Shown piece by piece: positions 4,106 to 58,431 of a DNA stretch of 64,000 nt (position 1 is the stretch's first letter; each line of letters opens with the position of its first letter). The notes under the pieces were generated by a model. That model was not told the DNA's origin. It was given only the letters and a program-made list of their open reading frames with translations, and did not search any database. The stretch is from a phage: sequence record OZ336094.1. One strand, given 5' to 3'. The position numbers were made by a program, and so were the translations under genes.

Positions 4106-5053
4106 TTAGAAACAGTGCAGGAAGTTTCGACCATACTGCAAACCAATAGGAGCAAATGGGATATCATCATCGAAGTCTTGAACAACAGGTTCTGGTTCTT
4201 TCGGTGCTGGCTCTTTCTTCTCTACTTTTTTAGTTTCTTTCTTAACTTCTTGTACTGGGGTAGACATTCCACGGATAGCAGCAGCTACTTTATCAGACAA
4301 AGCAAGAACTTCACGAGCAGCTTCAATAATCTCTTCTGCCGTTACAGTTTTACCTGTATGATCACGACAAGCGTTAAGAATTGCGTGTCCAACTGAAGCA
4401 CCAAGATCATAGTCAGTTACATCAACGCCACGATCTTTAGCAATTTCAGCTTTCAGAGTAACAGTTGCAGATTGTACCACACCAGCCAAGTCGAAAGCAT
4501 CACCTTTTACACCAGCACGTAGAAGCTCCAGAGCGCCGTTTACAGCGTGTCCTGTTTCAATCCCTACGGTATCACGTTTTTTGTAGTTAGGCTTGCTACC
4601 GTCATTATTAGAGGGCTTATTTCCACCTTTTGAAGAGGATTGTGCTTGCTGAACACCTTCTGTTGAAAGAATAGTGATTTTACCTTTAGAGGAGTTGTAG
4701 TATGTTTTGCCATTCCATTCAGAAGGTTTAACATCCATAGTTAGTTCTACACCTTTTTCGATAGTAACCCACTTATCACCATCTTTAACTTGCAGGTTTT
4801 CATGTTCTGGGTGCAGTTTAACTTCACCTAGGCTAACCCAAACACCTTTATCATCAGCACCAGCACCTTTCTCTTTAATAAGCAGAGATGCTTTGTGAGT
4901 TGATTCAATTTTCTTATCTGGCTGACCTGCAACCTTAATATAAGAGACTTTCATTTCATCAAACTTATCTAGTTTGACATATTCAACGATACCTTCAGCC
5001 CAGAATGCTTCTTTTTTAGTACGACGGTCGATTTCAGAATTAATTACTGGCAT
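4106..5053 (-). CDS. Single-stranded DNA-binding protein-like, with SSB-type acidic tip motif DFDDDIPF followed by a 15-aa extension
   Basis: 315 aa; C-terminal region ...VVQDFDDDIPFAPIGLQYGRNFLHCF; Gly/Ser/Asn-rich linker; location in replication module. Confidence 0.45.
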   Translation of the reverse strand: MPVINSEIDRRTKKEAFWAEGIVEYVKLDKFDEMKVSYIKVAGQPDKKIESTHKASLLIKEKGAGADDKGVWVSLGEVKLHPEHENLQVKDGDKWVTIEKGVELTMDVKPSEWNGKTYYNSSKGKITILSTEGVQQAQSSSKGGNKPSNNDGSKPNYKKRDTVGIETGHAVNGALELLRAGVKGDAFDLAGVVQSATVTLKAEIAKDRGVDVTDYDLGASVGHAILNACRDHTGKTVTAEEIIEAAREVLALSDKVAAAIRGMSTPVQEVKKETKKVEKKEPAPKEPEPVVQDFDDDIPFAPIGLQYGRNFLHCF

Positions 5054-5069
5054 AAATTCTCCTCTATAA

Positions 5070-5468
5070 TTACATTACTTTAACACAAAACTCTCGTAAA
5101 AGAGTAGCGTCAGTTTCTTCCAACAGGTATTTACCAAGACCAATACCAAATCCTATTTCACCACTTTCAAAATGGAGGATTTGTATCTTTTCTCCACCAA
5201 GGTTAATTACTTTTGCTTTTCCAGGATTATCCAAAACATCTCGTATTGTATCCTGTAGTAACATAAGTTCACGTTTTGTGATAGTGGTTTCAGATATCTC
5301 TTTGTTTTCTACTCTCACTGTTAAACGGTTGTATCCACCAAAGAGACATAGTATTTGAATAAAAAAGGTATTATCTTGAGGTTCAACATCTTTTTTAGTT
5401 AGCTCAAGACGATTAGTTTCTCTACTGTAGAACGTCTCGACTAAGATTTTAGAACGATTATCTGTCAT
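5070..5468 (-). CDS. Hypothetical protein, 132 aa
   Basis: Track ORF co-oriented in replication block; no motif recognised. Confidence 0.45.
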   Translation of the reverse strand: MTDNRSKILVETFYSRETNRLELTKKDVEPQDNTFFIQILCLFGGYNRLTVRVENKEISETTITKRELMLLQDTIRDVLDNPGKAKVINLGGEKIQILHFESGEIGFGIGLGKYLLEETDATLLREFCVKVM

Positions 5469-5511
5469 TCAAGTCCTCATAATAACACACAATTATAATG
5501 TTTGTCAACAC

Positions 5512-6105
5512 TTAAATTTTAAATTCTTCATTGTTAAATGAATCCAGTGTACGTACTTCTGGTTCTTTGGGAATGAAAACGTCTTTTACAAAGCGGAACA
5601 TGGGGAAACGTTCTGCCATTTTACGGACGTGTGCTTCTTTACCTGTGTATCGGTGATTAATAGTACAAATATTAGTTTTCAGTGCAAATTCAAAATCTGG
5701 ATGATATACATAATTTTGACCATCCCAGTAACACAAGCAAATAGCTACATCAAAGTTCCATACGATTTCACTGCGTACACCTTCTTCCATGATCATAAAG
5801 TTAAACTTAAGATCTTTATAGTATGCTTCAAATACCCATTTCAAATGTGGTAGTTCGGCATAAGTGTGTTCTGTTTGCTTAGTAAGTTGTTTAACATTAC
5901 GTGCACCAACACCCAACATCAAAAATTTCTCTACTAATACGAGTGTATTGTGGTTAGGCATACGCAAGTAAATGTCAATATCTTGCGCAGGTTTCTCTAA
6001 TCGCCAGTCACGTACAGCGCCGCCAGCTACAATTGCAAACGGATCTACCAGTTGGCACATACGTAATACTTCTAAAGCTCGTACTTTTTGATCTTCAATA
6101 TTCAT
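5512..6105 (-). CDS. Minimal nucleotidyltransferase, pol-beta superfamily (CCA-adding / poly(A) polymerase head-domain-like)
   Basis: Motif AIVAGGAVRDWRL...DIDIYL resembles the GGxVRD...DxD head motif of tRNA nucleotidyltransferases; only 197 aa. Confidence 0.4.
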   Translation of the reverse strand: MNIEDQKVRALEVLRMCQLVDPFAIVAGGAVRDWRLEKPAQDIDIYLRMPNHNTLVLVEKFLMLGVGARNVKQLTKQTEHTYAELPHLKWVFEAYYKDLKFNFMIMEEGVRSEIVWNFDVAICLCYWDGQNYVYHPDFEFALKTNICTINHRYTGKEAHVRKMAERFPMFRFVKDVFIPKEPEVRTLDSFNNEEFKI

Positions 6106-6242
6106 ATTTTCTCCTATCTCTTATGGTCTTTGCGTTATTCTAGATGTTCAAACATCTAATTATGAAATGGTTTAAAAGTGTGGAACAACCTTGGCAATAA
6201 TAGATTGTCCCACATAAAAACTCCTTTAAAATCAAAGAGATG

Positions 6243-8822
6243 TCAGTGACAACTAGCCCATGAGTTACCAACATCGTAACCAGCAGTGAGAGGTACATTA
6301 AGATTGTAATACTCACCAGCTTTATTAACAGCGATAGATGCTAATTCTCCAGCACGACTGTAGGCTGTAAACCAACCACCTTTCGGAGATTCATGTACGT
6401 TAGCCCAAATCTTGCCAGTACGTTTCTCTTCCTCTTCTTTCCAGGCATTAACTTTATCCAAACATTCTTTATCAATTTTCTTTTGTTCTTCTGGATCATC
6501 AACTTGAGTCCAACCTAAAGATTCTTTAGAGAACCATTTAAAATGCACCAGATCACGAGTTACTTCAAGCTGCGCTTCATCGTGATATGCAATCATTTGT
6601 TGAACGAATGACTTATTTTTCCAGTCATCAACAAAAAAGTCAACAGCTAATCCTTCTTCTTCGATAAGATCGTCGTAGATAACCATTGCTCTTTTTGCAC
6701 AAATAACACCACCACTCTGGAACAGAGAGTTAAGTATTGCGTGTGCAGATCGTGTAGGTACTTTTCTACCATCAATACCGAGAATGTATTTCTTACCTGT
6801 TTTAACCCAAAAATCATGCAGACGTTCTTTAAGAAGCGCAAGAGGTTTTGCAGCTTCCCAGAAAGCATCGTATACAAGCTGTCCTGTATACATATCACTA
6901 CCTATAGTTTTTGCTACTTTTGCAGCTTGAGCACCATAAGTAATACCATACTTAACAGATTTAGCAGGGCTTCGTTCAAACTTACGACCAATAGTGTCAG
7001 AAATACGTCGAGCCATCATTGTATGAACATCATTAGGTTTTTCCAATAATAGAGCATTACAATATTCGTGTGGTTCTTGCTCGTACCGCCAACAGTAGTG
7101 TGATTCTATTTTTGCCTCAAGAGAATCAAAGTCATAACCAATTTGGAAGTATTTTGGAACTTCTACACCAAATAAGTTACGCATTTCATATCCGTACAGA
7201 GATGTTACACGTGGGATATTTGCTACTAACCTATGTTTCATACGAGACGTAGCTGCATCACACGTTGCAGCAGGAGTTGGTATACGACCATCAGCCCTTA
7301 CTGCCGCCAGATAACCTTTATCGTAATCCTCTTCATCTTCTTCCCAATCAGCACCACCCCCTAGAATAGAGTTCCTACGGTGTTTATACGTAAGATACTG
7401 CACAATCTGCGTAGCATAAGGAAACTTTTCACCTAGTGCTTCCAAGTTAGGACAAATATCTTTCTCTTGCCCTTTTGTAAAGGAAGGGTTAGTAAGCACT
7501 TTAACACCACGACCTTTAGCTTTAGCAATACGATCTCTTAGTTTCCATTCCAAAGTTTCTGGTGTGCACTCTAGATGATCACATCTGTCCTGGCAGAAGT
7601 TAGATGCTAACGTTTGATCAACATAGTCACGAATAGCTTTCTCCATTTGTGCTTCATCTTTCTTAATCTTAGTGCCAGATTTAAGAGTGATATCTTTATC
7701 TTTGTATTCAGATGGACTCCAACCTAAACCAACTAACCAGTTTTTAATATGTGTAGTGTCGTCTAAAGTAGCAGGTACTGTAGGATCACAAATAGGTTCT
7801 TCTGCTGGAATAGGTAGTTTAAACTCCTTACCTAATGCAAATAGCCACCAACCATCTTCTTTTTGTACAAGTTCACCAGAATGTTTCTCTGCAAACTTTA
7901 TCATGTTACTTGAAGGTTCACCATTCTTTTTAAACTGTAGTTTAGGTGGAATGAATGATTTCAAATAACCTTTGGTAGCAGGTTTAGGAGGTAGCACAGG
8001 TTCTGCCTCTAAACGACATGCTTCCATTCGAGCATCCAGATCACGAATATTATCTTCTGCTTGTTTCATATTGAAAGCAAAGCCACGGTGCTCTTGACGT
8101 GTAATAATATCAGCTACACGTTGTTCTAAGTTAAATGGTTCAGACCACTTATTATAATCACCCCACTCTTCCATCAAATAACGGAACACTGCGGTGTTAG
8201 CTTTGTTATCGTAAATACAGTAATACAGCATATCTGCTGCAAATGTTTTAAATCTTTCAGTTTCAGGAATGTTTTTTCTAAAATCAATTTTAACATCCCC
8301 TCCAGCTTTCTTAGATAACTCTGCCAGACTATGACCACCGAAGCGATCAGGGTTTAGTGTCTTACTTAAGATCATAGTATCACAAATTTCAATGTTACTA
8401 TCACCCCAAGTATTGTACTTAACACTGTAGTTGAGTTTAAAAAATAATTTAATTGCCAGTAAGTCGAAGTTAATGATGTTGTGTCCAACTACTTTGGTAA
8501 TTTTATAGTTTGAATTACCTTTAAATTTACCTGTTCCATTTACAAAATCAGGAAAATCTTTAAGAGGGAAATGGGTATATTCTAAATGCTCATATTCCTC
8601 CAGTCGGTATTCATACTTTCCGTCAGTCTCAACATACGGACGACCATCGAAAAGATATTTATCACCATCATGGAAAGCAATAATCTCTCCAGTATCATGA
8701 CTTTCGCACACAATACAGTGCATTGCAAAACTATCTTTTAAACGATATGGACTTGCCAAGTAATCTACACTTTCGTCATTAAGCAAGTTGTTACTTTCAA
8801 TGTCGAAAGTAAAAGCTCCCAT
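6243..8822 (-). CDS. DNA polymerase, family A, with N-terminal 3'-5' exonuclease domain
   Basis: Exo motifs FDIE, GHNIINFD, YYCIYD; polymerase motif A-like DFDSLEAKI, motif B-like KSVKYGITYG, motif C YHDE; RBS ggaggg. Confidence 0.8.
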   Translation of the reverse strand: MGAFTFDIESNNLLNDESVDYLASPYRLKDSFAMHCIVCESHDTGEIIAFHDGDKYLFDGRPYVETDGKYEYRLEEYEHLEYTHFPLKDFPDFVNGTGKFKGNSNYKITKVVGHNIINFDLLAIKLFFKLNYSVKYNTWGDSNIEICDTMILSKTLNPDRFGGHSLAELSKKAGGDVKIDFRKNIPETERFKTFAADMLYYCIYDNKANTAVFRYLMEEWGDYNKWSEPFNLEQRVADIITRQEHRGFAFNMKQAEDNIRDLDARMEACRLEAEPVLPPKPATKGYLKSFIPPKLQFKKNGEPSSNMIKFAEKHSGELVQKEDGWWLFALGKEFKLPIPAEEPICDPTVPATLDDTTHIKNWLVGLGWSPSEYKDKDITLKSGTKIKKDEAQMEKAIRDYVDQTLASNFCQDRCDHLECTPETLEWKLRDRIAKAKGRGVKVLTNPSFTKGQEKDICPNLEALGEKFPYATQIVQYLTYKHRRNSILGGGADWEEDEEDYDKGYLAAVRADGRIPTPAATCDAATSRMKHRLVANIPRVTSLYGYEMRNLFGVEVPKYFQIGYDFDSLEAKIESHYCWRYEQEPHEYCNALLLEKPNDVHTMMARRISDTIGRKFERSPAKSVKYGITYGAQAAKVAKTIGSDMYTGQLVYDAFWEAAKPLALLKERLHDFWVKTGKKYILGIDGRKVPTRSAHAILNSLFQSGGVICAKRAMVIYDDLIEEEGLAVDFFVDDWKNKSFVQQMIAYHDEAQLEVTRDLVHFKWFSKESLGWTQVDDPEEQKKIDKECLDKVNAWKEEEEKRTGKIWANVHESPKGGWFTAYSRAGELASIAVNKAGEYYNLNVPLTAGYDVGNSWASCH

Positions 8823-8912
8823 TCTCCCTCCTTAAAATATTTCTAAAGTCTTAATTTGTTAATACTGTACCACAAATTAATTGTTTTGTAAAGGGGCTTT
8901 CGCCCCTTCTTG

Positions 8913-9308
8913 TTATTTATTGTCAGCACTTAGTTGTACTTTAATAAGGCAATTAGGGACACCATTGGTATTTCTCAAGCCTACACGTTCAATTTTAACA
9001 GTGCCTGTCAAACCATTAAAAGTGGAAACAATGTTATTAATGTTTTCATCCTTACTAGTGATATCAAGAATAACTTTATCACTGACATTTTTCAACATAC
9101 GATCTACAAGCTCTCCCACAAAACCACTGGTAGTTTGAATGAGAAGGTATAGACAACCATCCTCAAACCACAAATGTTCACCATAAGCATAACCGTATGG
9201 TTCTAATTCTGATCCGTCTTGAAATTTAAACTTAGCAATAGTTTTCGTATAATCATACGCTAAAGCAGAAGGGCATACCCCATAGAGGATGTTTTCGTTG
9301 TCTTTCAT
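8913..9308 (-). CDS. Hypothetical protein, 131 aa (start refined to internal ATG with RBS)
   Basis: Track ORF 8913..9437 overlaps primase-helicase 3' end; internal Met 44 preceded by aaggag and lies just downstream of the primase-helicase stop. Confidence 0.45.
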   Translation of the reverse strand: MKDNENILYGVCPSALAYDYTKTIAKFKFQDGSELEPYGYAYGEHLWFEDGCLYLLIQTTSGFVGELVDRMLKNVSDKVILDITSKDENINNIVSTFNGLTGTVKIERVGLRNTNGVPNCLIKVQLSADNK

Positions 9309-9318
9309 ATTTTTCTCC

Positions 9319-11091
9319 TTAATAAGAACCAGCAGAAATATTTTCTGGGTTACTTGTGTATTGATCGTAATCGTGAAGTGTAGCTGTTTTAATCTCATAG
9401 AAGAAACTACCTGCTGCACCAGTCTCTGAGAACTCACGGTTCTTTAGAATGTAGCAATATGTGCGGTTACGTTCCATAGGATCTTCAGCTTGTTTATCCC
9501 GCTCCAGCGCAATTGTAATACCAGCACCTTTAGCAAGGAAGCTACTACCCATTGCATCATCTTCTACAATATGTTCATTACTATTGTTAGAAGACTTTTT
9601 AACGTGTGAAATTACAACAATGGTTATTGCGTACTCTTTCATAATGCGTTTCAGCCACGTCGCAAGTTCCTCTTGTTGTGACACGTCCATACCAGAAAGC
9701 AAGTCAGAATAAGGGTCGATAACAAGAATGGTTACTCCGAAATAAATAATCATTTCCAGAACCTTCTCTTTAATCACATCTACGTTAGCTCCACGATCAT
9801 CACAAACATAGAAACGTGGTGTTCCATCTTCCCGTTCGTAAAAATCACGAATCTTTTCTTCATTATCTTTTAAAATCTTTTCCTTCTCTTCTTTCGTTTT
9901 ACGGTGAAGAGGGATATGCAAGAATGAAGACAGTAAGTTACGAGAATACTTCTTATACGTTGCCTCCAAAGATAAAATACCAAGAGTATGTTCTGGGTGT
10001 GCAAGAATAATGTGTTTCGTAATCTCGTTAACCAACAGTGTCTTACCGATACTTGTTTTTGCAAGTATAACAGTAATTTCTTCTTCTACCAAGCCTCCAC
10101 CTAACATATTCGAAGCAACACGCATGAATGGAGGAAGGGTGATCATTTTAGCTTCCAGGCATTCCAAGGCTGCTTCATACAGTACGTTAGAAGCGTAAAC
10201 ACCAGCAGGTGTGTACAGTTTAGCTTTGAAAAAGCGATCAATAAAATGATCAATTTTTCCTTCTACTAGTGCCTGGTTAGGATCTTTAACATCCGTTAGT
10301 TCCATCACGTAAACTTTATTACGTGGTAAGATTTTAACACATTTCTCAACTGCTGCACGTCCAGCTTCATCATTATCCATACATAGAACAATCTTTTTAA
10401 ATTGATCTAAGAATTTATAACGATGTTGAAGCTGCTTATGCAGAGATGTTTCGCCACAAGTACCAGATACTACAGCAGGAACAGGATATTTACCACCCTT
10501 GTTATAATCTTTTAGCATCTGTGTTGCAGCCAGCATATCATGTTCACCACCAACGATTAGAATAGTACCGCTGTGGTTACGATATTTAAACTCACCAAAA
10601 AGATCACAATCCTTTCCTGTTTCACCGATAGGATGTGAGAAATCTTTTGGATCGATACGTTGTTTATACCCAGCAATATTGTAATCTTTAGTTGTAGGGT
10701 ATAGTGTTGAAATTACTTCGCCAGTAGCTTCATCGTACATATAGCGTACACCGAAAGGCTTAGAGATATCTTCACGAATACCGCGATAACCTTTTGGATT
10801 AGTTCCAGTGCTGGCTTTTAGTTTATCATGTACTTCTGGATTAAACTCACTACCCAAGATATCCTCCTCTTCAATTTCTTCGCCGTGTGCATTTAACCAT
10901 TTTTGATCAGGGATAGTAAAGCCACAAGAAAAACAATGTGCGCCTCGATGATCTTCATCGGCATCTAAGCCATATACCATCAAATTGTTTTGTGATCGAT
11001 CACGCCCTCCTTTCATACAACGAGGACACCCAGTATGTCCTTCTTGACTTAAATCAATGTTATACCCATATTTATTTACAACATAAGACAC
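9319..11091 (-). CDS. Primase-helicase (T7 gp4-like): N-terminal zinc-ribbon primase plus DnaB-like helicase
   Basis: Zn-binding CPRC...CFSCG at N-terminus; Walker A AKTSIGKT in C-terminal half; 590 aa. Confidence 0.75.
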   Translation of the reverse strand: MSYVVNKYGYNIDLSQEGHTGCPRCMKGGRDRSQNNLMVYGLDADEDHRGAHCFSCGFTIPDQKWLNAHGEEIEEEDILGSEFNPEVHDKLKASTGTNPKGYRGIREDISKPFGVRYMYDEATGEVISTLYPTTKDYNIAGYKQRIDPKDFSHPIGETGKDCDLFGEFKYRNHSGTILIVGGEHDMLAATQMLKDYNKGGKYPVPAVVSGTCGETSLHKQLQHRYKFLDQFKKIVLCMDNDEAGRAAVEKCVKILPRNKVYVMELTDVKDPNQALVEGKIDHFIDRFFKAKLYTPAGVYASNVLYEAALECLEAKMITLPPFMRVASNMLGGGLVEEEITVILAKTSIGKTLLVNEITKHIILAHPEHTLGILSLEATYKKYSRNLLSSFLHIPLHRKTKEEKEKILKDNEEKIRDFYEREDGTPRFYVCDDRGANVDVIKEKVLEMIIYFGVTILVIDPYSDLLSGMDVSQQEELATWLKRIMKEYAITIVVISHVKKSSNNSNEHIVEDDAMGSSFLAKGAGITIALERDKQAEDPMERNRTYCYILKNREFSETGAAGSFFYEIKTATLHDYDQYTSNPENISAGSY

Positions 11092-44964: not shown

Positions 44965-45180
44965 TATTTTGAAAATTTTTATTTTTATAAAAAGGGGTGT
45001 GGGTTTCATGTACGGAAATTCACCCTCTGCACAGTATATCCAGAGTAAGTAGTATTCTACACCCTGTTAATAAAGTATTTAATTTGTTTGTTGGACTATG
45101 GTATCTGATCTTTAAAAGACATACTATCTCTTAACTACTACTTATAACAGAACAGTAAAATCATTTTTATAAAAAGTACA

Positions 45181-45382
45181 AAATTATTTAAAGTTTTTAC
45201 AGATTTTTGGGTACAAATTTTGAAAATGAAAAGTTCAAGTTTGGTCAAAATTATTTAAAGTTTTTGTACGTATTTCTGTCCAGATTTTGAAAATGAAAAC
45301 TTCAATTTTTTAAAAATTCCCCAGTTTATTTAAAGTTTTTTTGCCTTTTTCCGTAGAAAAATCAAAAATGAAAAGTTCAATT
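45181..45382. repeat. Three imperfect direct repeats of about 66-76 bp, each with TATTTAAAGTTTTT and TTGAAAATGAAAAGTTCAA blocks
   Basis: Seen directly; conserved blocks with 34-37 nt spacing; ORF-free AT-rich DNA. Confidence 0.7.
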
Positions 45383-45401
45383 TCGTGTTTTTATAGGTGT
45401 G

Positions 45402-45515
45402 TTAATGAGAATCATTTTCGTTTGTAAATGAGAATCATTATCATTTAACTATGTAAGTGATAATCATTCTCAGTAAGAGAATGAGAATCATTAGCAAATG
45501 AGAATTTTCTCATTT
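45402..45515. promoter_or_regulatory. Array of five or more palindromic AATGA-GAA-TCATT boxes (Fur-box-like)
   Basis: AATGAGAATCATT x3, GTGATAATCATTCTC, and perfect palindrome ATGAGAATTTTCTCAT; one base from the Fur core AATGATAATCATT. Confidence 0.5.
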
Positions 45516-45776
45516 AGAGAATAACGCGCAGGGGCGGTGTTTGTCTCGCGCTCCCGTGTCCCCTCGCCATACAATAAGAATAGCATAACCAACAACAAAA
45601 GCAAGCGATTATTTTTATCTTTACATTTCTTTACAAATTTATTTTAGACGAGCTACCGGCGATCAACCTTCCAACCAGTGCCCCCTGGTATGTTAGCCCC
45701 GCCTTTACGCCGTGGGGGTGGCGTTTCCTCTTCTGTATGTAAAACAGTATAAGCCCGATCCCTGGGCTTGTCAAGA

Positions 45777-46043
45777 TTATTTTTTGTTTTCTTGCCAGGA
45801 TAGGACACCTAACCAAAAATACATGTCGCCCCGCGCCCCTGGCGGGATCTTGCTTTCCCCGCCGCCACTGCAAGCCCATAGATAACCATTAGCGAACGGA
45901 TCAAAATGATCTATTTCTTCCACCTTATGATCGCCCAGGTTGAGAACGGTTTCAACCTTTAAGCCCGTTGCGCTTGCTACCTGGTGCACCGTGCCGCCTT
46001 GCCAGCCTAATGAGTGCATGAGGTGTAGAGTAGTATTTGTCAT
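45777..46043 (-). CDS. Hypothetical protein, 88 aa, in a GC-rich segment
   Basis: Track ORF; RBS aaaggg; local GC well above genome average; adjacent out-of-frame ORF 45631..45879 suggests possible frameshifted remnant. Confidence 0.3.
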   Translation of the reverse strand: MTNTTLHLMHSLGWQGGTVHQVASATGLKVETVLNLGDHKVEEIDHFDPFANGYLWACSGGGESKIPPGARGDMYFWLGVLSWQENKK

Positions 46044-46417: not shown

Positions 46418-46473
46418 TTGACAACGTTTTTTAATCTGATAAGATGTATCACATAGGGCGGCAATAGTGCCGC
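46418..46473 (+). promoter_or_regulatory. Promoter + 5' stem-loop cassette (TTGACA-N16-TAAGAT; hairpin GCGGCA-ATAG-TGCCGC)
   Basis: Member of repeated cassette family; followed by purine-rich RBS and ATG at 46498. Confidence 0.55.
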
Positions 46474-46497
46474 TCATAACAGAAGAGAGAAATAATC

Positions 46498-49785: not shown

Positions 49786-49793
49786 AAATAATA

Positions 49794-49849
49794 TTGACAA
49801 GATAACTAAAATCAGTAAAATGTAATGCATAGGGCGGCAATAGTGCCGC
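49794..49849 (+). promoter_or_regulatory. Promoter + 5' stem-loop cassette (TTGACA-N16-TAAAAT; hairpin GCGGCA-ATAG-TGCCGC)
   Basis: Cassette family. Confidence 0.55.
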
Positions 49850-49872
49850 TCCTAGTGAGAGAGATTATCAAG

Positions 49873-53031: not shown

Positions 53032-53091
53032 TTGACACTAGGCAAACAACGTAGTAAAGTTTATCACATAGGGCGGGAAATGGTTTCCCGC
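53032..53091 (+). promoter_or_regulatory. Promoter + 5' stem-loop cassette (TTGACA-N17-TAAAGT; hairpin GCGGGAAA-TGG-TTTCCCGC)
   Basis: Cassette family. Confidence 0.6.
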
Positions 53092-53114
53092 TCACAACAG
53101 AAGAGAAACAAATC

Positions 53115-53285
53115 ATGATCCCAACTATGTTTTATGTATCGCGCAAAGGTCACAATATTTTTTGGTCTGAAGATTTAAATGAAGCCATGACGTTTGCCCG
53201 TGATCGTGTTGCTATCGGTGGCGTTAACATTACTGTAACCGATGAAAACGGCATTGAATACTATAACGGCGACGATGAAGAGTAA
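53115..53285 (+). CDS. Hypothetical small protein, 56 aa
   Basis: Hand-translated MIPTMFYVSRKGHNIFWSEDLNEAMTFARDRVAIGG...; downstream of cassette. Confidence 0.45.
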   Translation: MIPTMFYVSRKGHNIFWSEDLNEAMTFARDRVAIGGVNITVTDENGIEYYNGDDEE

Positions 53286-53602: not shown

Positions 53603-53603
53603 T

Positions 53604-53659
53604 TTGACAACAATTATAAATCGGGTAGAATGTATTTCGTAGGGCGGCAATAGTGCCGC
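53604..53659 (+). promoter_or_regulatory. Promoter + 5' stem-loop cassette (TTGACA-N16-TAGAAT; hairpin GCGGCA-ATAG-TGCCGC)
   Basis: Cassette family. Confidence 0.6.
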
Positions 53660-53682
53660 TCACAACTAAAAGAGAAATCAGC

Positions 53683-55919: not shown

Positions 55920-56303
55920 ATGAGCAATATCATCAACCTGGCGGCTACTGTAAACGGTAAAGACTTTAACGGCGCTGTAGACCGTGATCCTATGTGGTGC
56001 TTATCAGTGTTTAAAGGCGATCTGGTTGAAGTTAGAACAACCGAAGGGTATAGCGATGATTATAAATGCGAGATCCATTTACACAACTGGTACACGGGTA
56101 AAACTTATGCGCTGAATCATGCGTTTATCGGCAAGGTTGAATATAGAGAAATGATCGACGAAGAAACGGGGCAAGATTTTAGCGAGCATGTTTATATTCG
56201 TTCCGAGACATTAGCCGAACGTTTGATCGAGAAAATGAAAGCAAAAAATAAAATTAATTTAACTCATTGGATTGATATAACAAACGATCCTGCTTATCAG
56301 TAA
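55920..56303 (+). CDS. Hypothetical protein, 127 aa
   Basis: Track ORF; RBS acgaggaat. Confidence 0.5.
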   Translation: MSNIINLAATVNGKDFNGAVDRDPMWCLSVFKGDLVEVRTTEGYSDDYKCEIHLHNWYTGKTYALNHAFIGKVEYREMIDEETGQDFSEHVYIRSETLAERLIEKMKAKNKINLTHWIDITNDPAYQ

Positions 56304-56316
56304 ATAACATTTCATA

Positions 56317-56346
56317 CCAGGGCGCACAAAGCGCCCTTTCTTTTTA
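56317..56346 (+). terminator. Intrinsic terminator (AGGGCGC-ACAAA-GCGCCCT + T-run)
   Basis: Same stem as 50955 and 55167 terminators. Confidence 0.6.
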
Positions 56347-56548
56347 CCTAAATAAAGATGATAGCTTTTACCTATCAAGAACGTTCACCGAAAAAAGTGA
56401 ATAGATCGCGGTATCGAGCTAATCAAGGAGCAGATGAACAACCATACCATGAAGATCATAAGGCGCTTACAGCGTGTTTTAGACCGCTTATTTTTAATTT
56501 CTTCATGCAACTATCTGGCAAAAACAGCCTTTTTCTCATCTTTCCTCT

Positions 56549-56626
56549 TAAATGATAATCATTCTTATTTATAGCTGATTATTTATGCAATAAACTGCAT
56601 AATGCAATAATGATAATCATTCTTAA
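56549..56626. promoter_or_regulatory. Two exact AATGATAATCATT palindromes (Fur-box core) in an ORF-free AT-rich region
   Basis: ttaaATGATAATCATTcttat and caataATGATAATCATTcttaa. Confidence 0.5.
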
Positions 56627-56986
56627 CTTAAGACCATCTAACTTATAAAATAATAAGTTATCTAACTAAATTAAAGCTAATTATCTTACTTTTATTTATA
56701 ACATACTGTTACTATCTTATTGATAACTTTATATTAAACAACAATAATCAATGTAAATCATTACTAAGCTAACTATAATCTATCTAACCCTTAAAACTAT
56801 AACTATAATCTATCGAATTGTTGCACAAAGTAACTATTAAATTGTTAGTAACATTGCTAAATAATTAATATCCTATCTATTTATGATCTAATCTTTACCT
56901 TCCTATTTATCACCTAACTAATCATTCCATATAGTAATCATTTCATACAATAACTATAACAAGAAATATAATTCGCAAGCGTATCA

Positions 56987-57182
56987 TTAGCAGCCTATGC
57001 CGGACACATAGGCGGCTAATAATAACGCAACTACACACCCCACATAATAACCATCACCGATAGTCATTATTTGTGCTTATGTAGCTTGCAACAACTGCAA
57101 GCGCAACAATATACAATTGTATATTGTATCCCTTACATTGTTGCGGTGCGTTATTATTAGCTAATGTTTAGAACATTGGCTA
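56987..57182. repeat. Cluster of three long palindromes in a roughly 1.4-kb non-coding region
   Basis: TTAGCAGCCTATG-N7-CATAGGCGGCTAA; perfect 20-bp palindrome CAATATACAATTGTATATTG; TAGCTAATGTT-TAG-AACATTGGCTA. Confidence 0.7.
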
Positions 57183-57465
57183 TAATATAAGCTAAATAAT
57201 AAGCTATACAATAATAAACATCGTGAATAATGATGCTGATGATCATAATGCGCCACCTTCCAGGGGGGCGCTATGTGAACACAAAGAAATCTTTCTTGTC
57301 AAGAAAAATATTAACACTATTGCGCAAAATTATTTATATATGAATAGATGGTTTTTCATACTATTGCCCCCATATAGCCTATCATTTGTTGAGCCTACTT
57401 TCTTAAAAGCGCAATAAATCAGAATTATCTTGATTTTTAGGGCGTTTTATAGTACAGAAAATATG

Positions 57466-57487
57466 CAAATGATAATCATTATCAGCT
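57466..57487. promoter_or_regulatory. Near-consensus Fur box (gcAAATGATAATCATTATCagc)
   Basis: 17 of 19 positions match GATAATGATAATCATTATC. Confidence 0.5.
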
Positions 57488-57639
57488 ATCTTCCACGGGT
57501 GGCACTATTTCACGCCAGATCATTTCATTTGGCAAGGTGTATATAGATGTTTAGACTTGCCAAGCCATTGATTTACTTAGAATTTATCTGTTTTGTTGTG
57601 AGTAGTACCTTTCTTGCTCAGAAAATAATCAAAAGTCTT

Positions 57640-57672
57640 ATAAGTCATTGAATGATAATGCAAATGATAATT
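57640..57672. promoter_or_regulatory. Tandem GATAAT-type hexamer array (gAATGATAATgcAAATGATAATTATTCTCATTg)
   Basis: Overlapping Fur-like hexamers. Confidence 0.45.
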
Positions 57673-58053
57673 ATTCTCATTGATATTTGAGGGGGACGGT
57701 CGGCAGAAATCGGGGGGCGCTGAAAATCGCGTTAAGCACCTCTCGCAAGCGAGCAGTATTTTGCGGCAAGTTATTGATATTATTGACTTTACGCTTATGA
57801 AAAGGGGGGTGTGTCGAAATAAATCGGGTATACCGGAAAATTTTTGTGGTATAGATATTTATTTGTCTATATTATGTACAAAGGGGTGTGTTAAAAATAA
57901 TAGGTATATATAGAATAATTGATAGGGAAATCCTATACTAATCCCTATACTAATTCCTCCATTAATGATGTTCCTATGTTACTGTTCTTGTAATAGATGA
58001 AAAGACGCTGTATGATGTGTGGCATGAAACGTAAACTTATAAAGGAGTCTGAT

Positions 58054-58431
58054 ATGTGTGTTCCTCTTAGCAGTCCACTGCTGTTAGAATTTTACAAAGC
58101 ATGGATGCAAGATCATTCCTCAATGCATCGTGAGAATGTTGGTTTGTGTATTTGCCTTATGGATTATCTGGCAACCACTATGTCAAAGAAAAAACCTACG
58201 CAAGAAGATATAGAACATTTCAAAATGGTTCGCAGTAAAACGCTGGAAGAGATGAAATTGCAATTCACGTGTGCTGGGCTATCCTCCTTCCTGCCCTTTA
58301 ATGATGATCTTCTGTGTTATGAAGATGAAGGTAAGAAACATTCTTGCCATACTAACCCAGAGAGATTGCAGTGGGTGAAAGATCGTATTGCCGATTCATG
58401 TTTGGTGTTAGGGGGTGGTAATGAAAAGTAA
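58054..58431 (+). CDS. Paralog-family protein 1 (start refined), 125 aa
   Basis: Shares LLEFYK.W, GLC.CL.DY, FTCAGL, LPFN, CHTN..RLQWVKDRI with three other genes; RBS aaaggag. Confidence 0.5.
   Translation: MCVPLSSPLLLEFYKAWMQDHSSMHRENVGLCICLMDYLATTMSKKKPTQEDIEHFKMVRSKTLEEMKLQFTCAGLSSFLPFNDDLLCYEDEGKKHSCHTNPERLQWVKDRIADSCLVLGGGNEK

Follow-up and report, generated by a model that had tools for sequence, protein, structure and literature searches.

Why would a lytic phage carry sites that look like operators of Fur, the iron regulator of its host, in gene-free DNA at the very end of its genome? The question is raised by a stretch of sequence record OZ336094.1, 64,000 nucleotides long and referred to here as the window. 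Boxes matching the Fur consensus lie in a non-coding gap of ~1.7 kb (56338-58053; AT-rich, 32% GC) and in a second large non-coding region near 45.4 kb. On sequence comparison the window is a Justusliebigvirus, that is, a phi92-like myovirus of the Stephanstirmvirinae, and the gap is the genome terminus, where two of the boxes fall within a direct terminal repeat (DTR). The favored explanation, to which we give a probability of about one half, is that these sites are host Fur operators co-opted by the phage and that they would modulate transcription of the terminal region in response to iron. Iron-dependent modulation is the first choice because the sites occupy two large non-coding regions and the DTR around a conserved promoter.

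Sites were scored against the 19-bp Fur consensus GATAATGATAATCATTATC and the 13-mer core AATGATAATCATT, and their coordinates are collected in Table 1. The core occurs as three exact copies in the gap. Two of these had been placed at about 56553 and 56609 by the original prediction, made from the sequence alone, and are found within 2 nt of those positions. The third begins at 57468, inside a 17/19 match that had been given as 57466-57487 and starts 1 nt earlier. A tandem hexamer array was also predicted, at 57640-57672. The array is real, with the order GATAAT-GCAAAT-GATAAT-t-ATTCTC-ATTGAT, but it lies further right, as box 4. Successive sites in the gap are separated by 58, 859, and 195 bp.

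These matches are far more frequent than expected. With at most one mismatch, the 13-mer is found 12 times in the window against 0.28 expected, and every match falls in the gap or at 45404-45492. Matches of at least 15/19 number seven in the 64 kb, all within 45401-45495 or 56548-57678. In the complete 148-kb relative OZ035770.1, the two homologous regions, together ~2.5 kb, hold all four matches of at least 16/19 (0.05 expected) and 7 of the 11 matches of at least 15/19. An artefact of AT-rich DNA, or what is left of a recent local duplication, could be suspected from the low GC content of the gap and from some flanking similarity shared by the four sites (family D1). Because the gap is AT-rich, dinucleotide-preserving shuffles were run on the gap alone, and 0/1000 reached the observed counts; the same test on the DTR alone and on the 45.4-kb gap likewise gave 0/1000. 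Moreover, the sites persist in their slots among relatives at ~64% overall identity while the flanks diverge. The artefact explanation is refuted, and chance origin of the motif is excluded, as the claim that such repeats are improbable had supposed.

The motif has the internal structure of a Fur operator. The 52 non-identical phage sites share the motif AATGAkAATCATTmTCA, with T or G at position 9 mirrored symmetrically by A or C at position 17. The 7-1-7 model calls for A at position 20, and A stands there in 36/52 sites, although that position lies outside the 19-mer by which they were selected. The central base of the 7-1-7 inverted repeat TGATAATnATTATCA is C in 37/52 and is less constrained than its neighbors; a perfect unit is present in box 3. 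Judged by the 19-bp consensus, or by at least three NATWAT hexamers, the gap boxes are at the level of natural operators, with 14, 16, 17, and 15 of 19 positions matching.

With the phage sites as its sole source, a matrix was made and run across 30 kb of E. coli K-12 (605-635 kb). Its top four matches are fepB|entC (twice), fepD|entS, and fepA|fes, the classic Fur-controlled divergent promoters, and the best of them, the entC-fepB operator, contains the identical 13-mer. The window boxes score 26-30 bits on this matrix and the ent/fep operators 15-26, which shows that, as sequences, those of the phage would belong with the strongest Fur sites. The proposed identity of the motifs as Fur boxes holds, in that they are indistinguishable by sequence from bona fide E. 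coli Fur operators. A tblastn search with E. coli Fur, against the complete relative and the window, found no phage-encoded Fur (best E = 3.8). With no Fur homolog in the phage, the binder would be a host protein, and host Fe2+-Fur is likely to bind the sites.

Table 1. Coordinates of the Fur-type boxes and of other features of the window (empty cells, no strand or remark given)
Feature	Position	Strand	Remarks
Fur-type box 1	56548-56566		14/19; exact 13-mer core 56551-56563
Fur-type box 2	56606-56624		16/19; exact 13-mer core 56609-56621
Fur-type box 3	57465-57483		17/19; exact 13-mer core 57468-57480; perfect 7-1-7 unit TGATAATCATTATCA at 57470-57484
Fur-type box 4, about five hexamers	57654-57684		three overlapping 19-mers matching 14, 15, and 14 of 19
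Four or five Fur-type boxes, other large non-coding region	45401-45495		15-16/19
Direct terminal repeat (DTR)	57392-57734		single copy in this assembly; placed by alignment to the phi92 DTR
Left DTR boundary motif GTTG^AGC	57388-57394	+	cut between 57391 and 57392
Right DTR boundary motif GTTA^AGC	57731-57737	+	cut between 57734 and 57735
P_DTR, sigma70-type promoter	57529-57557	+	TTGGCA-17-TAGACT (TTGACA in phi92)
Conserved palindrome TTATGCA-N6-TGCATAA	56583-56602		between boxes 1 and 2; 90% column identity
Conserved structured element	56993-57161	+	hairpin 56993-57013, then a 15-bp closing stem
Weak double Fur-like box	57226-57250		14/19 twice; Justusliebigvirus only
Intrinsic terminator of the last right-end gene (gp30.8-like)	56319-56337	+	stem-loop and T-run
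AT-rich spacer	56640-56960		weakly conserved; short local direct repeats (families D6, D7, D12)
Early promoter and hairpin loci	46419-46475, 49790-49850, 53062-53117, 53603-53665		
Two further copies of the ~33-nt repeat	57795-57904	+	family D3; in the leader before 58054-58431

The positions of the boxes are conserved to a greater extent than their sequences. An alignment of the gap took in the window, a Klebsiella phage, and four genomes of Phapecoctavirus, with column identity averaging 64%, and the landmarks were then located in phi92, phiWec190, EF1-1, WPEC1, and IMG/VR contigs. In almost all lineages examined the order is the same: terminator, box 1, palindrome, box 2 (not everywhere), AT-rich variable spacer, and structured element, followed by GTTGAGC, box 3 (~75 bp), promoter block, box-4 array (~95 bp), TGATATTTG, and GTTAAGC (~50 bp). 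Fur-type sites stand in matching slots in at least five lineages while their sequences turn over; positions are kept in Justusliebigvirus, Phapecoctavirus, the Klebsiella lineage, phiWec190, EF1-1/WPEC1, and IMG/VR contigs.

At slots 1 and 3, none of the lineages examined falls below 14/19 for its Fur-type site. Slot 1 reaches 15-16/19 in Phapecoctavirus (where it reads TGCAATGATAACCATTATC), KP13-26, phiWec190, EF1-1, and WPEC1. Slot 4 is retained in the lineages of E. coli phages, with 16/19 in 536P1 and 17/19 in phiWec190 (GATAATGATAATTATTCTC). In the Klebsiella phage KP13-26, box 2 matches 15/19 and slot 4 ~13/19, the latter read by eye from the aligned sequence. Column identity is 0.67-0.74 in the boxes and 0.92 in the box-1 core (6 phages), against 0.48 for the gap; for box 3 alone it is 73% against 48%. 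Just after box 4, TGATATTTG at 57681-57689 is invariant. Sites of at least 14/19 number 8 within 7.4 kb in one distant IMG/VR relative and 11 within 4.5 kb in another; IMG/VR contributed five and three loci. Distant genera could not be anchored on the gene upstream of the gap because it encodes a widespread T4 gp30.8-like protein.

Two of the conserved slots lie near the predicted physical ends of the genome. The phi92 record FR775895.2 has a 343-bp DTR annotated at both ends, and this repeat aligns end to end with the single copy in the window (337/343 identical). A 342-bp DTR was determined with PhageTerm for BME3, the closest described relative of Paula (PMC12210895), and the subfamily as a whole is described as having DTRs (PMC12695924). 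The GenBank records PD06 and PHB05 were opened exactly at window position 57391, and the phi92 and BME3 records end within 1 nt of ~57734. Both boundaries carry GTTR^AGC with the same cut position, invariant across all lineages examined; in phi92, DTR-R starts as ...ttgttg^AGCC and DTR-L ends as ...CGCGTTA^agcacc, and the right boundary is in an invariant block. GTTR^AGC is probably the terminase recognition or cut motif, and it could set the true start for many arbitrarily opened records of the subfamily. Extra GTTGAGCA copies are present upstream in KP13-26, 536P1, and WPEC1.

Because box 3 and the hexamer array are inside the terminal repeat, both would be at each end of the virion DNA. Box 3 lies 74 bp from the left end of the DTR and the box-4 array 50-80 bp from its right end. 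The cores of boxes 1 and 2 are located ~0.8 kb to the left of the DTR, 230-300 bp past the terminator of the last gene. With the DTR counted twice, a virion genome would carry ~nine sites of at least 15/19. The original prediction had the two box clusters bracketing the plastic region of small genes. This idea is rejected because the second cluster sits in the middle of that region, at the genome ends, and the early small genes continue beyond the DTR on the same strand.

Sites so close to the ends could have an architectural function, in which Fur or another binder would aid terminase at GTTR^AGC or pause DNA entry. For aid to terminase the parallel is IHF at lambda cosB; for paused entry it is the DnaA-box region that has been proposed for the injection stop signal of T5. 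Boxes 3 and 4, wherever a lineage retains them, keep conserved distances of ~+75 and ~-50 to -80 from the DTR boundaries. However, boxes 1 and 2 stand 0.8 kb beyond the DTR, and 12 kb separate it from the 45.4-kb array. Sites outside the DTR cannot serve the ends, so this function cannot explain them, and we know of no link between terminase and Fur. An architectural function is very unlikely as the explanation of the sites.

Within the DTR the boxes surround a promoter. In a position-weight scan of alignment columns, just one sigma70 promoter, P_DTR, proved to be shared between genera. It is directed toward the first early genes, and a conserved block, TGCCAAGCCATTGAT, follows it. A simple promoter scan picked it up as well, and that scan was uninformative as a whole (11 promoters found, 10.4 expected). 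Box 3 is ~90 bp upstream of the P_DTR start and the box-4 array ~100 bp downstream. This flanking geometry does not fit promoter occlusion, but it fits a loop or roadblock, or displacement of H-NS from upstream DNA.

A mechanism for iron-dependent modulation can be proposed from this arrangement. When phage DNA enters an iron-replete cell, Fe2+-Fur would occupy box 3 (~-90) and box 4 (~+100) around P_DTR, together with the box-1/box-2 pair and the 45.4-kb array. Fur occupancy would modulate transcription of the terminal region, and the first stage of infection would then depend on the iron status of the host. The effect could be repression, through looping or a roadblock, or activation, if Fur displaces H-NS from the very AT-rich DNA. 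At E. coli ftnA, Fur acts from upstream and displaces H-NS. For Salmonella hilD, displacement of H-NS by Fur is likewise reported (PMC3089636). Since the boxes lie off the promoter hexamers, the classical arrangement of a Fur repressor is not found here; the lack of promoter overlap is still compatible with Fur action, given that ftnA and hilD have Fur sites upstream.

The companion array at 45.4 kb is organized differently. It matches the Fur consensus at 15-16/19 four times and contains five dyad-symmetric sites spaced 17-29 bp apart, beside direct repeats and AT-rich DNA. Immediately upstream, at 45150-45400, are three or four direct repeats of ~70 bp, each with the palindrome TTGAAAATGAAAAGTTCAA. 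By sequence, these repeats and the array together resemble the layout of a replication origin. Iterons of a lambda-type origin, which would be at least four dyad-symmetric repeats at regular intervals beside an AT-rich unwinding region and bound by a phage initiator, were also considered for the gap and rejected there, as the spacing of the sites is irregular. The array fits an iteron layout, so the origin idea is retained solely as a rival at 45.4 kb.

A non-coding element at 45618-45743 is 72-85% conserved into Vequintavirinae, Certrevirus, Henunavirus, and Seunavirus. Shuffled sequence folds just as well, and the element has no copy in the 56-kb gap. In Vequintavirinae, 7-1-7 sites (TGAGAATnATTCTCA, TGATAATTATTCTCA) are found directly upstream of the homolog of this element at the four distant loci checked, in phages of E. 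coli, Salmonella, Cronobacter (a locus of 51% GC), and Erwinia. Positional conservation of the 45.4-kb module reaches Vequintavirinae. The element is adjoined by an open reading frame (ORF) of 88 aa on the minus strand, 45777-46043, which belongs to phrog_19316.

Several observations weigh against iron control through host Fur. The matrix test is partly circular because the phage sites were gathered by their similarity to the Fur consensus. In the alignment scan, the boxes overlap the -35/-10 hexamers of no conserved promoter, and the box is absent from the ordinary strong early promoters of the phage that were examined. Box 2 is degraded or lost in Phapecoctavirus, and the conservation of box 4a is merely average. 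TGAGAATnATTCTCA, the variant with the deepest conservation, departs from the ideal Fur half-site in a symmetric way, and deep conservation is equally expected if the binder is a conserved protein of the phage.

Such a protein is the main rival to host Fur. The sites would be bound by a conserved dimeric product of the phage, such as an early regulator, a replication initiator, or the small terminase subunit, and their resemblance to Fur boxes would be incidental. Conservation of the motif across two subfamilies that share a core genome agrees with this, as do the symmetric deviation of the commonest deep variant, the lambda-origin-like look of the 45.4-kb array, the location of the sites off promoters, and the presence of two of them 50-75 bp from terminase cut sites. 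Yet a 17/19 match, a perfect 15-bp 7-1-7 unit, and the 13-mer of entC-fepB are very unlikely to arise together by chance. The motif also stays at the enterobacterial Fur consensus, without drift, on Escherichia, Klebsiella, Salmonella, Cronobacter, and Erwinia. At the terminus the sites are dispersed in a manner unlike iterons, and the neighboring ORFs examined carry no DNA-binding annotation. A phage-encoded binder is, on balance, unlikely.

Fur binding might also serve the phage by removing Fur from the host. A cell reportedly contains ~5,000-10,000 Fur molecules, a count ascribed to Zheng et al. 1999, and the sites amplified by replication would be of the same order. Since each genome would bring ~nine strong sites, replication should deplete the Fur of the cell by titration. 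As a decoy, the replicating DNA would soak up Fur and derepress ent, fep, fhu, ryhB, nrdHIEF, and suf, feeding iron-dependent nucleotide metabolism. The number, strength, and clustering of the sites and their location off promoters suit this role, and so does the principle of the Fur titration assay (FURTA, ascribed to Stojiljkovic et al. 1994), in which a multicopy Fur box reportedly derepresses fhuF. The phages encode the iron-dependent enzymes NrdAB and NrdDG (PMC12210895). A decoy has no need of fixed positions, yet the spacing of the sites from the DTR boundaries and from P_DTR is precisely kept, and for the phage to benefit, the host would have to go on transcribing and translating through a short lytic cycle. 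Titration has to be taken seriously, whether in place of iron-dependent modulation or in addition to it, although a decoy as the reason for the sites is judged unlikely.

A broader version of iron control is doubtful, though it would join several of these elements. Phages of the phi92, phAPEC8, and rV5 types might both read and rewire the iron physiology of the host through Fur. In this version, Fur bound in the DTR would gate the first-entering promoter and so make an iron-dependent decision to go or wait. The box-1/box-2 pair would control a candidate non-coding RNA (ncRNA) at 56993-57161. The amplified arrays would strip Fur from the host chromosome, and iron would be mobilized for the phage ribonucleotide reductases.

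The candidate RNA is the most substantial of the additional findings. The element is ~170 nt long, and its closing stem (57015-57029 paired with 57147-57161) encloses three hairpins. Of 48 predicted pairs, 12 show compensatory double changes among 10 sequences, e.g., ACGCA/TGCGT, AGCCA/TGGCT, and CCGCA/TGCGG. Folding z is -5.8 on the plus strand and -7.2 on the minus strand, and the U-G wobbles fit the plus strand only. By covariance model, the element is present in a single copy per genome and is restricted to Stephanstirmvirinae. In Rfam, no family is found at E <= 1 in 44-59 kb, and at E <= 10 the gap gives sub-threshold noise. A PrrF hit over box 1 (16.7 bits) was rejected as noise. The element, as modeled, could be a new phage ncRNA or a single-stranded DNA signal for replication or packaging. 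An ncRNA would possibly be driven from a weak promoter-like sequence, CTGATT-17-CATAAT, between boxes 1 and 2. The right arm of the conserved palindrome, which is present in nearly all lineages examined, supplies this weak -10-like CATAAT.

Over the stretch at 56.3-58.0 kb, identity is 99.6% with Escherichia phage Paula and 91-96% with ~50 other Justusliebigvirus genomes. The left neighbor of the gap (55920-56303), which encodes a T4 gp30.8-like protein (Pfam Phage_30_8), is homologous to Phi92_gp248, the gene that closes the phi92 record. Its terminator is annotated in Paula, PATM, and phAPEC8 and has a column identity of 95% across genera. The right neighbors, beginning with the first early gene at 58054-58431, are homologs of the first phi92 genes (gp001 onward), and genes on both flanks read rightward. 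The gap had been described as gene-free over 1.4 kb; it is indeed without conserved genes, over the greater length of ~1.7 kb. Its ORFs of 38-77 aa show no coding conservation among relatives, which have frame-breaking indels and stops in every frame. A search of the window for tRNA and transfer-messenger RNA found none, and the neighboring ORFs that were compared with Pfam and PHROGs gave no functional or DNA-binding annotation.

Column identity falls to 32% in the AT-rich spacer, which is variable in length. The double Fur-like box is probably not a conserved site, its column identity being 10% outside the genus. It is followed by a hairpin, GCGCC-N-GGCGC, also restricted to Justusliebigvirus; the stretch extends to 57272. 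The ordinary early promoters are near-consensus TTGACA-N17-TAAGAT/TAGAAT and are followed by a conserved 5' hairpin, TAGGGCGGCAATAGTGCCGCTCA. By its sequence, the "PHIRE promoter" annotated in phAPEC8 probably marks this hairpin of the 5' untranslated region and not a promoter. The leader from P_DTR to the first early gene is ~490 nt long and contains three copies of a ~33-nt repeat (57681-57713, 57795-57827, and 57872-57904; family D3). The repeat has the pattern ..AT..A.GGGGTGTG..AAATAAT.GG and is conserved in Phapecoctavirus. GenBank records labeled "Campylobacter phage" (MG065639, MG065645, MG065656, and MG065689; host Campylobacter jejuni) are 96-100% identical to this coliphage group. 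Their host label is probably wrong, or they derive from contaminated lysates.

Relatives of phi92, phAPEC8, and rV5 have a broad host range and are often part of phage-therapy collections. Iron is limiting at the sites of infection that they are to treat (urine, blood, and inflamed gut). If the terminal-repeat promoter and the non-coding elements next to it are wired to Fur, infection efficiency would depend on iron in a way that is predictable and can be engineered. Iron would then join the host signals read by virulent phages, namely SOS (LexA), sporulation (Spo0A), cell cycle (CtrA), and phosphate (PhoB). The phage would also offer a natural example of a virus that titrates a transcription factor as it replicates. 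Whether or not Fur is involved, the genome ends, a probable cut motif, and a new structured element are fixed for the whole subfamily.

Compared with known systems, the predicted terminus shares with the short DTRs of T7-like, N4-like, and other DTR-packaging phages an exact end repeat of a few hundred bp, defined cut sites, and early promoters for host RNA polymerase at the entering end. To our knowledge, the GTTR^AGC boundary and the embedded Fur-type sites are not features of T7-like or N4-like systems. With the E. coli Fur operators (entC-fepB, fepA-fes, fepD-entS, and iucA), the phage sites share the 19-bp consensus, the 7-1-7/hexamer organization, the tolerated variants (GAGAAT, a free central base), and the arrays of overlapping boxes. 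Unlike those operators, they are on a virulent phage at a terminal repeat, lie off the -35/-10 hexamers, and have no iron gene downstream.

Use of host regulators by phages is established. LexA sites have been co-opted in temperate phages, and stx1 of the Shiga-toxin phages has a Fur box upstream. A fur box also precedes the phage-borne sitABCD genes on lambdoid prophages (PMC6969025). The sitABCD and stx1 boxes resemble the present sites in being Fur operators on phage DNA that tie phage-borne sequence to the host Fur regulon. They are single operators that serve accessory cargo of temperate phages, whereas here multiple sites occupy the core and terminal region of a lytic phage. A literature search turned up no description of Fur boxes in these or other virulent coliphages, of Fur operators in the terminal or core regulatory DNA of any virulent phage, or of Fur binding and iron-dependent expression at these sites.

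The remaining comparison is with lytic phages of Alphaproteobacteria, in which CtrA sites are clustered in a large intergenic region and are connected with "lytic deferment" (Mascolo et al. 2022, PMC9437464), and with virulent phi29, which carries Spo0A sites (PMC9437464). There, as here, conserved, high-scoring sites for a global host regulator are skewed toward large non-coding regions of a virulent phage. The skewed distribution of the CtrA type is seen in the 148-kb relative, where 4/4 sites of at least 16/19 fall in the two regions. The cases differ in that the signal for CtrA is the cell cycle (for Spo0A, sporulation), the CtrA sites are mainly in promoter regions, and their binding was shown experimentally, whereas here the signal would be iron and the sites flank a promoter and are predicted from sequence. 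The purpose proposed is the same in both, namely to sense the physiological state of the host.

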